A stretch of 64,000 nucleotides of DNA from a virus (taxonomy: Duplodnaviria; Caudoviricetes): positions 6,631-70,630 of the IMG/VR virus record IMGVR_UViG_3300034084_000080; one strand, given 5' to 3'. This document shows, piece after piece, positions 7,947 through 14,963 of the stretch (within the stretch, counting starts at the first letter, position 1; each line of letters starts with the position of its first letter). Both the position numbers and the translations under genes were made by a program. Under the pieces are notes generated by a model that was not told the origin of the DNA, ran no database searches, and saw only the letters and a list, made by a program, of their open reading frames with translations.

Positions 7947-8383
7947 TTACTTTGTGTAATTACCGTTTGGATCATTAAAACACTCCGATATTTTTAACTG
8001 TTGTAGCTTTGATTTTATCTCCTCAACATCATCGGTTAAGATTGAGTAATATAAAGCACCACCCATTGAATCCCTGATTTTTTCAGCATCAGCTAACTGT
8101 TTCTCTCCTTCTTCCACAGTGGTAAATTCGAGGTTCTTGTGTAAAAAGTTCATTTTTTGTTGTTACGTTGTTAAATTTATTAATTTTCTATTTCATTTTT
8201 GATATCCATCCAAATTAACTTTATCTTTTCTTCTTCAAAAGGAAGTATTCTACGGTAATTTTTCCCGGAAATCTTCTTGTTAAGTTTTGAATTTGCAACA
8301 TTTAAACTGAGATCAGGGTATAACCTTCGTGCGATCTCTGATCTTTTTACTGCAGGATGATTTAATATTTTATTGATGTCCAT
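7947..8383 (-). other. Two small early ORFs (7947-8153 and 8180-8383, the latter HTH-like)
   Basis: ORF track; VKRSEIARRLYP in the second ORF resembles an HTH. Confidence 0.5.
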
Positions 8384-8392
8384 TTTATAAAG

Positions 8393-8932
8393 TTAAATTA
8401 GTTTCCTTTTTTTAGGTTTGGTCTGCAAACCTGTTTTGTGTGCGTGTAATTGATTTTCACTTTGCGTACACCATTCAAGATTTTCAACTCGATTATCTGT
8501 TTTTATACCATTAATGTGATTTACATGAGGTTTATTACTCTTATTTTCTATAAAGCAAATAGAAACCGCTCTGTGTACTGATATTTTTTTTGTTTTACCG
8601 TTAATTGATAATACAACTCTAAGATATCCACGAGTGGTTAATTCAGGTTTTAAAATCTGTTTGGAACTTTTTACCCTACCTAAATTAGACGCATAATATC
8701 CTTCATAATCAGTTATTGGTTCCCATTTTTCGCCAGGTAATGATTCTATTTTACTAACCTTACTAACGTAGTCACGTTTATTTCTTAATCTACTTAACTG
8801 ATTAATGCAAAGCTTGCAATAGTTCCTCGAATATGTATAATTATGTCCTTTAACTACGCAAGAATATGTTGAAAATTCAGAAATTTGTTTTTCTAAATTG
8901 CACTTTCTGCAAACCTTATTTTGATTTTTCAT
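8393..8932 (-). CDS. NUMOD4-HNH homing endonuclease
   Basis: EKWEPITDYEGYYASNLGRVKS (NUMOD4) plus VNHINGIKTDNRVENLEW (HNH). Confidence 0.9.
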   Translation of the reverse strand: MKNQNKVCRKCNLEKQISEFSTYSCVVKGHNYTYSRNYCKLCINQLSRLRNKRDYVSKVSKIESLPGEKWEPITDYEGYYASNLGRVKSSKQILKPELTTRGYLRVVLSINGKTKKISVHRAVSICFIENKSNKPHVNHINGIKTDNRVENLEWCTQSENQLHAHKTGLQTKPKKRKLI

Positions 8933-9138
8933 TACTCACTTATTTTGCTGAAATAATTAGTTAATTGTGTTGCAACATAAACGATGTTGTGCCTATCGTT
9001 TTGATTTAAACTGCAATAATCATCTGTTGTGATATACCCCAGAAAAATAGTTTGAAATGTTTCTTGTGCCTGATGTGGCTCAATTTGTGAAAACAGTTCA
9101 TTTAGAAGCTGTTCTTTTTGTGTTTTCTCGTTCTGCAT
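8932..9138 (-). CDS. Small protein downstream of RNA switch 1 (paralog of 13190-13393)
   Basis: Shares F-x-GY-x3-D-x2-C-x4-NDR pattern with the 13190-13393 product. Confidence 0.75.
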   Translation of the reverse strand: MQNEKTQKEQLLNELFSQIEPHQAQETFQTIFLGYITTDDYCSLNQNDRHNIVYVATQLTNYFSKISE

Positions 9139-9278
9139 GAGATTTAAAATTTGTAAATAAATGCCCAGGTCGCTGCAGAACGAGCCGGATAACCGGTTGT
9201 TGACGGACTTTCACCGTATCGCCTGGGCTTTATCTTTGTTAGGAAAATTTGAATTGGATCTCTCCGACTCATTCTGCA
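9127..9278 (-). ncRNA. Structured antisense-switch leader 1 (P4 CI / P1 c4-like architecture)
   Basis: Outer stem 9222-9228/9163-9169; hairpin ACGG-TGAAAGT-CCGT at 9203-9217; segment 9174-9194 complementary to 9256-9278 and to the start-codon region 9127-9137. Confidence 0.75.
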
Positions 9279-9476
9279 TTCCAAACATGAGTATAATATT
9301 TTAAAAAAACAAGCTGTGTACGTTCTTTTATTGTTTACAAATTGATTACTGCATAATGTATTCCAAGACATATAATTGCGAATACAATACTTGCTAAGAG
9401 CCATTTAACTCTGTCCAATGCTTCAAGAAAATTTTTCATGGTTTTTGATTTTTAGGTTAAAAAAAAGAGGTAGTTT

Positions 9477-10763
9477 TTAGGCTACCTCGCTGATTTGTTT
9501 TTTGTATCTCGTTTTGATCTTCCGGATGTTTTTATTCACAAGTGATATAATCCGTTGATTGTGTATTGTGGGCTTATTCTCAAAGCCTCTCGATTGCAGG
9601 GGCTTCATCTCAGTAAGAGAAATTTCAATTGTTTCTACCCTCTGTCCACCTATCTGAGCAGATAGTATCAAAGATCCCGGTTTGTTATAATATGAATTGG
9701 TGAATACACAATGTTTATGTACTTCTGATTCCTCCAAAAACTCATTTACAGATTCAAGAACCTTTACTGTTAAGTCACCATCCGTAAAAGCAAGTCCGAA
9801 AAATGCTTTCTTTTCTTCAAGGTACTTAGCGTTTGCTTCATTGATCTTCCGTTTCTGTTTTTCAAGGGCTATTTTCTTTTCCTGATTACTCTTCTTTTTT
9901 ACATAATGAGCATGAGCCTTATGAAGATCATCAGGGCATATATATTTGGGGTTACGAATATCCTTGCCGAAATGGACTAATAAATCCAAATAGTCCAAGT
10001 AATCGGAAGAATCCTGAACAGTGTACTTATTACGAATGCAAATCTTTATTGAATCCCAATAGTTCTTAACCGGATTTTCTCTATACAGCAAGTATCTAAC
10101 CATATCATATTGACCTGATTTAATCAAAGTTTCAGCGATACTGTTATTTTTAAGCATCATTAAAAGATCAAAAGGTCTGCAGTATGATACATCAGGAGTA
10201 AATCCGTTCCGTTGAAATATTGGCATAACCTTAGAATCCGGATGAATAGCATCTGTAAAAACATTGTACTTTCTCAAAAACTGCTTTATTTCCATGGTTC
10301 CACTCCAATGATCTTCACTTATCACTCCCATTCCTCCGCAGTTCTTTGATACTATTACAGTCTTTTCTGAATCAACTTCTATCCATTGCTGAGTGATCTC
10401 ATGGATAAATACTCCGGGTTTTTCCCCGGCAAAGTGTAATGTTCTTAATTGAAAAAATCTATTAACCTGAAATCTGTCCTTTGTTTCAAGCATGGCAACA
10501 TATACCATTTGCTCATACTTCTTCTTCAATGTGTCCTCTATGTTTACAGTCCTTTTACATGATGGGCATTTATCGGTAAGATTATCAGAAGGAATACTAT
10601 CCCATTGATGCCCACAGCTTAAACACGATGTACGTTTTTTAGTCCTGAAAGCTTTATGCTCAATGACGTTATTAAATGCCCATTTTTCAATTTTACGATT
10701 GATCTTATACAGTTTATTGCTGAGGCTCAAAACCTCCGCTTGTAGCTTGTTTTTAGGCTTCAT
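9477..10763 (-). CDS. PcfJ domain protein
   Basis: MKPKNKLQ N-terminus, CLSCGH/CPSC zinc motifs, YLDYLDLL...ICPDDLHKAH, HCVFTNSYY. Confidence 0.85.
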   Translation of the reverse strand: MKPKNKLQAEVLSLSNKLYKINRKIEKWAFNNVIEHKAFRTKKRTSCLSCGHQWDSIPSDNLTDKCPSCKRTVNIEDTLKKKYEQMVYVAMLETKDRFQVNRFFQLRTLHFAGEKPGVFIHEITQQWIEVDSEKTVIVSKNCGGMGVISEDHWSGTMEIKQFLRKYNVFTDAIHPDSKVMPIFQRNGFTPDVSYCRPFDLLMMLKNNSIAETLIKSGQYDMVRYLLYRENPVKNYWDSIKICIRNKYTVQDSSDYLDYLDLLVHFGKDIRNPKYICPDDLHKAHAHYVKKKSNQEKKIALEKQKRKINEANAKYLEEKKAFFGLAFTDGDLTVKVLESVNEFLEESEVHKHCVFTNSYYNKPGSLILSAQIGGQRVETIEISLTEMKPLQSRGFENKPTIHNQRIISLVNKNIRKIKTRYKKQISEVA

Positions 10764-10767
10764 GGCT

Positions 10768-11166
10768 TTAAAATAATGTTAACACGTTTGTTGGTTGTGG
10801 TTGAGCCTTTTTAATTTCAGGCTTCTTAACTATTGCTTCTTTGGATGGCTTTTTAGTTTTTGGAGTAGCAGATTTGGGATTACCTATTATTAAATCTGCA
10901 TGATGGTTTACTACTACATTGCCGGAACTTATCTTGTTTCCAATGTTGATATTATCTTCATCGTAGTAATGAACTGCCATATCGTAAACCTCTTGATCTG
11001 CAAAACCATTGCAACCGCTATTCTTTACGGTGTTGAGAATGTATGTAATACAGTCGTCAATGTTCTTGTTAGGCTTTTTAAGGGTTTCAGCGAATAAAGG
11101 GTCATTTATTGCCCTACCTTGTAGGTATGCGTGAATAGTTGACTTAAATACTTCTGAACCTTTCAT
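10768..11166 (-). CDS. PcfK-like / AcrIIA9-family protein
   Basis: FKSTIHAYLQGRAINDPLFA...KNIDDCITYILNTVKNSGCNGF...MAVHYYDED. Confidence 0.8.
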   Translation of the reverse strand: MKGSEVFKSTIHAYLQGRAINDPLFAETLKKPNKNIDDCITYILNTVKNSGCNGFADQEVYDMAVHYYDEDNINIGNKISSGNVVVNHHADLIIGNPKSATPKTKKPSKEAIVKKPEIKKAQPQPTNVLTLF

Positions 11167-14537: not shown

Positions 14538-14555
14538 TTTTTTAAGTTTTAAGTG

Positions 14556-14708
14556 TTATATGTAAATATTTAATTCTCTCTCTAAATCTTCCTTATTCAG
14601 ACTTATATCCGAATCTAAAACCATCCCAAGGGCTTGACTATATGTATAGTCCTTATCCATAAATTGCAATACCCGCGAGCATGCGAAACTTTTACTTTCT
14701 GTTTTCAT
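14556..14708 (-). CDS. Small protein (50 aa, not in ORF track) downstream of the type III hammerhead
   Basis: Hand translation MKTESKSFACSRVLQFMDKDYTYSQALGMVLDSDISLNKEDLERELNIYI. Confidence 0.6.
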   Translation of the reverse strand: MKTESKSFACSRVLQFMDKDYTYSQALGMVLDSDISLNKEDLERELNIYI

Positions 14709-14715
14709 GATTCAA

Positions 14716-14734
14716 TTATATGATTATCGTATAT
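14716..14734. promoter_or_regulatory. 19-bp palindromic operator-like site
   Basis: TTATATGATTATCGTATAT between the ribozyme and the ATG at 14708. Confidence 0.8.
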
Positions 14735-14737
14735 TTT

Positions 14738-14795
14738 AAACGTTTCGGGCTTATTTTCGCCCATCATCAGTAAGAGAGAATACTCTTAGACGTTT
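14738..14795 (-). ncRNA. Hammerhead ribozyme, type III, with an extra U after A9
   Basis: AAACGU-C^UAAGAG(UAUUCU)CUCUUA-CUGAUGA-U-GGGC(GAAAAUAA)GCCC-GAA-ACGUUU. Confidence 0.88.
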
Positions 14796-14932
14796 TTTTC
14801 GCTTTACCCGATTTTAACCCCGGTTCTACGGTCCTTATTGTTACCACCAGCGGACATACTGTTTCTGAATTATTACCCCAGAATGGGAGTGACTTTTTAA
14901 GCTTTATTTGCTCTGTGTCGCCTATCACATAA

Positions 14933-14963
14933 CAAACGTATATAAAAATATATACATATACAA
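14933..14963 (-). promoter_or_regulatory. Bacteroidetes primary-sigma promoter for the early operon
   Basis: -7 box TACGTTTG at 14940-14933 and TTG at 14963-14961, 20-nt spacer. Confidence 0.6.

Follow-up and report, generated by a model that had tools for sequence, protein, structure and literature searches.

Candidate hammerhead ribozymes and a putative start-codon-masking leader RNA family in the probable accessory arm of a temperate Bacteroidota phage

A 7-kb stretch in a phage genome of 70.6 kb raises the question of whether the self-cleavage motifs, structured leaders, hairpins and repeated palindrome found among its genes serve one regulatory programme or are separate acquisitions. The stretch occupies positions 7947-14963, read on the minus strand, of the window, by which we mean the whole 64,000-nt piece of phage DNA that was analysed. 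An earlier note on this DNA had read it as an early operon under a layered post-transcriptional programme, with self-cleavage, antisense gating and a DNA operator dividing up and timing the expression of small, possibly toxic or anti-defence proteins. Gene-flanking hammerhead clusters with cleavage in vitro were described in prophages by Perreault et al. in 2011, and are proposed to divide long phage transcripts into mRNAs the length of a gene (PMC3088659). Hammerheads in prophage operons, known since that year, are still unexplained.

We think it fairly probable that the 7 kb form the accessory arm of a temperate Bacteroidota phage, with at least three transcription units and cassette-borne cis-acting RNAs, namely two hammerheads that would cut mRNA and portable leader switches. 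The hammerheads and switches look like independent add-ons rather than one coordinated system. The region as a whole combines a known ribozyme arrangement with a cis-regulatory RNA family that is probably new.

Transcription units of the region

The Bacteroidetes-type promoter at 14933..14963 (minus strand) has a -33 TTG at 14963-14961, a spacer of 20 nt and the consensus -7 box TACGTTTG at 14940-14933; no other TAnnTTTG on this strand of the region is preceded by a TTG. Its transcription start is predicted near 14927, and the leader of about 135 nt between it and the first hammerhead motif showed no notable fold. An intrinsic terminator at 13863..13894 (minus strand; hairpin 13894-13873, an 8-bp stem with six G-C pairs, then a T run) closes this first unit after ORFs of 50 and 209 aa. 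On the opposite strand, 13599..13865 holds a hydrophobic ORF of 88 aa that is called as a gene on an identical contig (L011). Further along the minus strand, a PcfK-like gene (11166-10768) and a PcfJ-like gene (10763-9477) precede a second intrinsic terminator at 9457..9488 (hairpin 9488-9467, a 7-bp stem and a T8 run), and promoter-like boxes lie directly upstream of each switch. The two terminators, the opposite-strand ORF and the internal promoters split the stretch, so the proposal of one operon is not supported; there are at least three transcription units.

The elements named in the earlier note as RNA devices at many junctions are all present, although about half of the junctions are simple overlaps or short gaps that carry no device. 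None of these devices was reported by Rfam as a family: searches at gathering score and at E <= 10, over the window, the region, short excerpts and 17 related loci, returned tRNAs, chance matches and a FopS-like match only. This last match, weak and sub-threshold, lies on the strand opposite the terminator at 9457..9488. The ESM Atlas gave no function for the 209-aa protein or for the 68-aa protein described below.

Two complete hammerhead cores

Both hammerheads of the earlier note, a type III and a type I motif, were located with a structural descriptor on the minus strand. The type III motif (14738..14795) lies in the 5' leader, with a predicted cut after C14789 and stems I, II and III of 6, 4 and 6 bp. 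The type I motif (11673..11722), with a fully canonical core, has stems of 6, 4 and 5 bp, a GUGA loop and a predicted cut after C11679. CUGAUGA and GAAA are present in both (core C3 U4 G5 A6 N7 G8 A9 ... G12 A13 A14), as are three helices, core-adjacent pairs that are all standard (1.1-2.1, 10.1-11.1 G-C and 15.1-16.1 A-U) and the cleavage triplet GUC, in keeping with the NUH rule. The type III core has one extra U between A9 and G10.1, which may slow cleavage. Loops I (UAUUCU) and II (GAAAAUAA) of this motif could kiss through 4 bp (UAUU/AAUA), and in the type I motif a 4-bp contact (UGAA/UUCA) is possible upstream of stem I, each judged by eye in a single sequence. The type I motif overlaps the final codons and the stop of ORF 11975-11703, and its predicted cut falls 19 nt upstream of the next ATG (11659), that of a 62-aa gene.

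Equally strict descriptor matches numbered two in 1500 random 64-kb windows, a chance of about 0.001 per window, and none in 1.13 Mb of other loci; a relaxed descriptor allowing one core mismatch revealed no further hammerhead. The Rfam models RF00163, RF00008 and their relatives gave no match at E <= 10 in the region, in excerpts of 130-160 nt or in the whole genome. Each motif has a full hammerhead core and the three helices around it, from which cleavage activity is predicted, and their coding strand and gene-junction positions fit this prediction.

If active, the two ribozymes would cut the mRNA with different outcomes. The type III ribozyme would remove the triphosphate leader of about 135 nt and itself form a structured 5' cap, ending in a 5'-OH, on the first message. 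The type I ribozyme would cut ahead of the 62-aa gene, freeing the leader of that gene while itself staying on the 3' end of the upstream message. The pair makes a clean test case, one topology being expected at the 5' end of its product and the other at the 3' end. Like the hammerheads of Perreault et al., these are canonical in the core, are encoded on the coding strand where genes of a prophage accessory region begin or end, and occur more than once per operon-length stretch. They differ in their Bacteroidota host, in the placement of one in a 5' leader and one over a stop codon, in both being missed by the Rfam models, and in being described here from sequence.

A leader RNA family predicted to pair with the start codon

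The switches matter more than the hammerheads, being compact, with unusually clear covariation, a fixed 11-bp clamp on the start codon and a partner anchored at the transcription start. Both copies proposed in the earlier note were scored by model R1, which found no third copy in the window. Switch 2 (13381..13529, minus strand, 63.2 bits) consists of segment A at 13528-13514, the 5' strand of helix P at 13479-13473, a T-loop hairpin at 13468-13454, segment B at 13438-13424, GCGA at 13423-13420, the 3' strand of P at 13419-13413 and segment C at 13392-13382, with the ATG at 13393-13391; it heads a 67-aa ORF (13393-13190). The same segments of switch 1 (9126..9279, minus strand, 54 bits) lie at 9278-9264 (A), 9228-9222 (5' strand of P), 9217-9203 (T-loop hairpin), 9188-9174 (B), 9173-9170 (GCGA), 9169-9163 (3' strand of P) and 9137-9127 (C), with the ATG at 9138-9136. 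This copy heads a 68-aa ORF (9138-8932) that overlaps a NUMOD4-HNH gene (8932-8393), and a near-consensus -7 box (CATGTTTG) stands immediately upstream of it. An antisense promoter box at 9231-9238 (plus strand) was set aside as chance, its motif occurring 56 times in the window and not being conserved in other members.

The family as collected numbers 36 distinct members, taken from prophages, genomes and metagenomes of Bacteroidota. The RNA is about 150 nt long, and all members share a covarying 7-bp helix P, which continues in CGU/GCG with a bulged A, as well as the T-loop hairpin GGUGMAAGUCC and the sequence GCGAC, both invariant, and the G/U-rich segment B. B can pair either with segment A, at the 5' terminus of the transcript, or with C, the 11 nt starting at the UG of the AUG. 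About 25 nucleotides of the core are invariant and the remainder covaries freely. In P and the T-stem 93% of cells are paired, with a covariation score of 0.45 against 0.11 for shuffled data. Double changes occur in 12 of the 13 A:B pairs (98.8% of cells paired) and in 9 of the 11 B:C pairs, counts that lean towards the model because complementarity to B was the means of locating A and C; the fixed anchors of A (the promoter box) and of C (the AUG) are independent of the complementarity search. The TAnnTTTG box lies exactly 3 nt upstream of A in 21 of the 36 members, B:C starts at the UG of the AUG in 30, and B:C is exactly 11 bp in 17. The A:B helix is 12-22 bp long, and median duplex energies are -27 kcal/mol for A:B and -18 kcal/mol for B:C. 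Two features expected of riboswitches were thus found, a structured domain supported by covariation and mutually exclusive pairings over the initiation region. The antisense gating of the earlier note is in this sense well founded: gating of the start codon is strongly supported, at the level of sequence, by covariation across 26-36 independent relatives.

The genes downstream of the members fall into at least 22 unrelated clusters (RadC, Bro-N, SymE-like and many small unknowns), and copies precede chromosomal RadC paralogues as well as occurring in prophages. UUCG-type loops in the family argue that it functions as RNA. A coding role as an N-terminal extension or uORF was considered and rejected, since frames are random (10 of 26 in frame) and not conserved; a 118-aa gene call on the related contig L009 is an artefact of an open frame. 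The phage contains no trans-acting partner for A or B in the form of an extra A- or B-like sequence.

The family was not found in Rfam 15, and neither 12 copies searched at E <= 10 nor 7 loci searched at gathering score matched any Rfam family. The core variant of the window's own switches was not found by exact search of viral contigs, a consensus-like switch had no blastn match among GenBank phages and plasmids, and R1 run on 150 sampled Bacteroidota genomes after a rough pre-filter gave no match beyond the centre genome.

We infer the direction of switching and the trigger as follows. Transcription would start at segment A, and the scaffold of helix P and the T-loop hairpin would present B as an anti-start segment. 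While the 5'-terminal A holds B, the AUG would be free and the first ORF translated. Were A lost, occupied or out-competed, B would seal the AUG in the 11-bp helix stacked on P, and translation would stop. A:B forms first and far exceeds B:C in strength, so that the switch would stay on permanently unless a trigger intervened. Candidates for this trigger are decay or processing of the 5' end, and a factor that acts on the T-loop core. Bacteroidota do not rely on Shine-Dalgarno pairing, and masking of the AUG is therefore a natural control point. To our knowledge, few such regulators are known in Bacteroidota. The core has more invariant nucleotides than a passive scaffold would require, a hint of a specific ligand or protein. 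It is possible, though less likely than not, that the switch represents a previously unseen class of RNA that senses an effector. Its T-loop/bulged-A junction, which has a hairpin in common with twister-sister, would then read a host signal or the state of the transcript's own 5' end, and would in this way permit the opening gene of an accessory cassette (RadC, antirepressor-like Bro-N, toxin-like or unknown small proteins) to be translated, in prophages as in chromosomes throughout Bacteroidota. By gating antirepressor-like and RadC genes, a portable leader of this kind could serve Bacteroidota mobile elements as a general on/off device, and could be useful as a synthetic part.

Known leaders resemble the switch in part. 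The radC RNA motif is linked to integrase and antirestriction genes. Like the switch, this proteobacterial motif (RF01754) lies in the 5' UTR of mobile-element genes such as radC (Weinberg et al. 2010, PMC2864571). Sequence and fold differ, and the RF01754 model matches none of the switch copies searched. Another parallel lies in translational riboswitch platforms and in fold-back control such as IS10 fold-back inhibition and pyrC start-site switching, where an anti-start segment pairs either with a partner upstream or with the initiation region and the identity of the 5' end matters. The switch departs from these in that the 5' terminus itself acts as the anti-anti-start segment and exceeds the anti-start helix in length, and in its conserved T-loop scaffold and pseudoknot topology.

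Separate elements or one programme

Several observations speak for the integrated programme of the earlier note: a single strand carries, within 5.6 kb, all four of the genome's specific RNA devices, some structure is found at half of the junctions, and a copy of the operator abuts the type III hammerhead. We nevertheless judge this reading improbable. The stretch is divided by the terminators, opposite-strand gene and internal promoters, no part of any device pairs with another device, and comparison with relatives argues against joint inheritance. A scan of 1.13 Mb found no hammerhead within about 5 kb of some 40 other switch copies. In L009, the only relative, switch 1, its ORF and an HNH gene are retained in a different, reshuffled neighbourhood, and the homologous junction at the 62-aa gene has no hammerhead; nor has a 33%-identical homologue of the hammerhead-bearing ORF. 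Protein-anchored searches with the 209-aa, 90-aa and PcfJ proteins revealed no close relatives, and Polaribacter phages share only PcfK/PcfJ, with no devices. The parts do not travel together, and the layered programme fails on this comparison: as sequence features the self-cleavage motifs and the start-codon gating stand, whereas one programme timing a single operon does not. The devices probably lie side by side through cassette accretion, with no joint programme, and the hairpins and palindrome are ordinary punctuation.

The switch itself admits other readings. It might be a true riboswitch or a protein- or tRNA-operated sensor, in which a small molecule or host factor, bound at the invariant T-loop, the bulged A and the three-way junction, would set whether B pairs with A or with the AUG. 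The invariant nucleotides within an otherwise freely covarying RNA, and two mutually exclusive covarying pairings that amount to an expression platform, agree with this, and copies before chromosomal RadC paralogues and in prophages would make the signal probably a host signal. We hold it to be rather unlikely, because the A:B helix is far longer than the ligand-controlled P1 of known riboswitches and because the controlled genes are heterogeneous and not metabolic, which suggests no ligand. A further reading, in which the hammerhead motifs would be inactive remnants or chance matches and the T-loop core a degenerate or novel self-cleaving ribozyme related to twister-sister, is very improbable. 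In its favour are the failure of the Rfam models to score either hammerhead, the extra U of the type III core, the tendency of ribozyme classes to cluster in phage-like regions, and an alignment of the twister-sister model (RF02681) to the switch T-loop hairpin. The likeness extends to a 7-nt loop (UGMAAGU) closed by GG/CC, and to the position of the hairpin at a junction of several helices, where an irregularity of the closing helix is three base pairs away. Yet hammerheads so complete are rare by chance, as estimated above, and with RF02681 run on the whole genome only model positions 32-46 align to the switch, a hairpin match of 15 nt at 11 bits and E about 1.2. The switch has a single bulged A instead of L1 with its C-A site, no internal loop bearing the twister-sister cleavage site and no stems P3 and P5, whereas its A/B/C platform and start codon are absent from twister-sister.

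The punctuation that we assign to the accessory arm includes the operator of the earlier note, a palindrome TATACGA-N3-TCRTATA. Its three copies stand in the order given there, at 14717..14733 (8 nt before ATG 14708), 12727..12743 (3 nt before ATG 12723) and 12265..12281 (17 nt before ATG 12247), but they are not specific to the stretch, with about 16 sites across all modules of the window, which also counts against an integrated programme. Besides the hairpin of the first terminator, the stable hairpins proposed at 13173-13156 and 12497-12452 were recovered. That at 13156..13173 (minus strand; a 7-bp G+C-rich stem with a GGAA loop and no T run, -15.3 kcal/mol, z -4.0) sits between the 67-aa ORF and a DUF6876 gene and is probably a processing or stability hairpin. 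The element at 12452..12497 (minus strand) has a 9-bp stem and a 28-nt loop enclosing an inner hairpin (z -3.35); it matched no family and did not fit the T-loop consensus that had been ascribed to it, the real T-loops lying inside the switches. RNase III and stability hairpins stand between cistrons of the T7 and lambda early operons, and these two hairpins, seen here as sequence, are likewise stable, intergenic and free of a terminator tail. A terminator-like hairpin at 12388-12370 follows the second of them.

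Setting of the studied stretch

The source record (70.6 kb, bases 6631-70630 of which form the window) is classed in IMG/VR as a provirus and is about 97% complete. We place the window in the Bacteroidota because of its TAnnTTTG promoter boxes, the Polaribacter phages that are closest by protein, and the relatives of its RNA elements. Contig L011 is identical in sequence to the window and therefore contributes no variation. The stretch under study (7947-14963, minus strand) is the distal half of a leftward block of roughly 13 kb with mostly small ORFs, in which Pfam matches only DUF6876, PcfK, PcfJ and a NUMOD4-HNH endonuclease. 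Three free-standing genes of the homing-endonuclease type lie within or adjoin the stretch (HNH, 7039-7425, plus strand; NUMOD4-HNH, 8393-8932, minus strand; GIY-YIG, 15076-15612, plus strand), consistent with a mosaic, cassette-built region.

A family of proposed switch RNAs

The two leader switches proposed in the earlier note are present at 9279-9126 and 13529-13381; they are paralogues of each other, and the two proteins that they precede (67 and 68 aa) are likewise paralogous. R1, the covariance model of the family, finds exactly these two copies in the window; in two other loci, one of them on an Elizabethkingia chromosome, it detects a second copy each. When viral, genome and metagenome collections were scanned for the pattern, many chance matches came up besides true relatives, and 36 distinct members were left after filtering by architecture. 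Common to these are a freely covarying helix P of 7 bp, extended by an invariant CGU/GCG with a bulged A; a hairpin of 3-4 bp whose invariant loop UGMAAGU fits a T-loop; a variable hairpin; and a G/U-rich segment B, the 3' end of which lies directly at an invariant GCGAC.

Pairing was measured on a core alignment (A1) and a full-length alignment (A3). In A1, 93% of cells are paired, with a covariation score of 0.45; shuffled controls score 0.11 and slid controls no more than 0.15. B can form a contiguous helix of 12-22 bp with a segment A close to the 5' end, with double changes in 12 of 13 scored pairs, and can also pair with segment C at the start codon (double changes in 9 of 11 pairs); A and C were found through their complementarity to B, which biases these pair counts, and the promoter box and the AUG serve as independent anchors. 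In 30 of the 36 members the B:C helix starts with the UG of the AUG, and in 17 its length is exactly 11 bp. Both helices start at the nucleotide immediately before GCGA, so that either A:B or B:C would stack on P, and both topologies would be pseudoknots compatible with the observed linker lengths. In 21 members A is preceded, at a distance of exactly 3 nt, by a Bacteroidetes -7 box, and A is therefore the predicted 5' end of the transcript. A coding role was rejected since reading frames through the element are random, and the UUCG-type loops of the variable hairpin speak for action as RNA, not DNA. The public 118-aa gene call in the relative fragment L009 (1445-1801) is an annotation artefact of a frame through the switch RNA that happens to be open; the real ORF behind the switch encodes 68 aa (1595-1801).

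Median duplex energies are -27 kcal/mol for A:B versus -18 for B:C. A:B is the stronger helix and its A strand is made first, which should leave the AUG exposed by default; when A is blocked in the folding of switch 2, the minimum-energy structure closes off the AUG. On these grounds we favour a default-ON gate that would close upon loss of A, or if A is occupied or out-competed. The deciding factor would have its scaffold or receptor in the invariant T-loop and bulged-A junction. Candidate triggers are decay or processing of the 5' end, a protein, and a small molecule. No trans partner was found in the phage.

No Rfam family matches the switch copies; the twister-sister model shares with them only the T-loop hairpin, which aligns at 11 bits. 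The genes behind the switches make up 22 or more unrelated clusters (RadC, Bro-N, SymE-like, DUF4160 and many small unknowns), and in two prophages the cassette has a moron-like position, next to tail genes or at the edge of the prophage. The family appears to be sporadic and tied to mobile elements, since GenBank phages, PLSDB plasmids and 150 sampled Bacteroidota genomes yielded no further copies. On an Elizabethkingia meningoseptica chromosome (L190, G001:C30) each of two tandem RadC paralogues is preceded by its own copy (8477-8555 and 9271-9350) in a context that is not obviously phage, and metagenome contig L121 carries two copies (537-611 and 839-913) 300 nt apart. A high-G+C variant of the core follows a terminator in locus L013 (2302-2381, minus strand; 50.7 bits); it has no Bacteroidetes promoter box, its B pairs immediately upstream of the ATG, and the family may reach beyond the Bacteroidota.

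Hammerhead motifs

Reading of the minus strand with an RNAMotif-like descriptor bore out both reported hammerheads as complete motifs. The type I copy (11722-11673) has the core CUGAUGA and GAAA, a stem II of 4 bp starting G-C, a stem III of 5 bp starting A-U with a GUGA loop, a stem I of 6 bp, and a GUC site with predicted cleavage after C11679. It overlaps the final codons and stop of a 90-aa ORF, and the next ATG lies 19 nt downstream. In the type III copy (14795-14738) the stems measure 6/4/6 bp, cleavage is predicted after C14789 at a GUC site, and a single additional U stands between A9 and G10.1. About 135 nt upstream of this copy is the only consensus promoter on the minus strand of the region (-7 box 14940-14933, with an upstream TTG).

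Equally strict matches numbered two in 1500 random 64-kb windows and none in 1.13 Mb of unrelated loci, and no third hammerhead was found in the whole genome with one core mismatch allowed. Against membership in the family, Rfam hammerhead models gave no match at E <= 10, also with 130-160-nt excerpts, a silence that we infer to be insensitivity of models whose seeds are mainly eukaryotic and viroid. A minimal hammerhead-like match within a coding region (5907-5975, plus strand; stems 4/3/4) was rejected as being at the chance-expected level.

Prophage genes flanked by multiple hammerheads have been described, with cleavage of polycistronic constructs in vitro (Perreault et al. 2011, PMC3088659). 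The arrangement seen here is of this published kind, with gene-flanking prophage hammerheads common to both, whereas cleavage was shown there and the present copies are sequence motifs. Judging from topology, the type III ribozyme would remain as a structured 5'-OH terminus of the downstream message, and the type I ribozyme would stay attached to the upstream message at its 3' end, the type I cut freeing the A-rich leader of the next gene from stem I.

Transcription units and junction elements

The earlier note had taken the stretch for a single operon run by one layered programme. It comprises at least three transcription units, and hairpins of intrinsic terminators lie at 13894-13873 and 9488-9467 (both minus strand). 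The four specific devices do fall within 5.6 kb, and no other link between them was found. Co-occurrence in relatives did not emerge: no hammerhead lies near other switch copies (1.13 Mb scanned). In the only relative fragment, L009/L010 (switch-1 protein 85% identical), promoter, switch, ORF and an HNH gene are retained, with a different gene upstream of them, and no hammerhead stands before the homologue of the 62-aa gene; the hammerhead-bearing ORF has a 33%-identical homologue, which is also without a ribozyme. The simplest reading is that the stretch consists of accreted cassettes, each with a putative RNA device of its own, in a mosaic region that has many homing endonucleases.

The repeated "operator" is a palindrome, TATACGA-N3-TCRTATA (35 strand-hits versus 0.96 expected), which is not specific to the stretch: about 16 sites occur between 683 and 61687 in all genome modules (for example 6416-6432, 21384-21400 and 61671-61687). 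On both strands most of them stand 2-57 nt ahead of a start codon, and one (53023-53039) directly precedes a tRNA-Met gene. It is a candidate genome-wide regulatory site, as a phage-wide operator or promoter element.

Stable hairpins at 13173-13156 (GGAA loop, z about -4) and 12497-12452 (z about -3.4), both on the minus strand, showed no family match and no conservation. A strongly hydrophobic 88-aa ORF on the opposite strand (13599-13865, plus), wedged between the first terminator and switch 2, may be a membrane-protein gene of the moron type, driven by a promoter of its own. A sub-threshold Rfam match to the Bacteroidetes FopS sRNA family (9429-9504, plus strand; 33 bits against a gathering threshold of 56, E 0.057) is antisense to the initiation region of a 34-aa ORF and has a bidirectional terminator hairpin in common; its probable cause is complementarity to a leader typical of Bacteroidota, not a real sRNA. 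A terminator-like hairpin with a U-rich tail (12370-12388, minus strand) lies inside an uncalled hydrophobic 43-aa ORF (12414-12283), and the 72-aa and 91-aa genes are separated by 257 nt that may be non-coding and may mark the end of a transcription unit.
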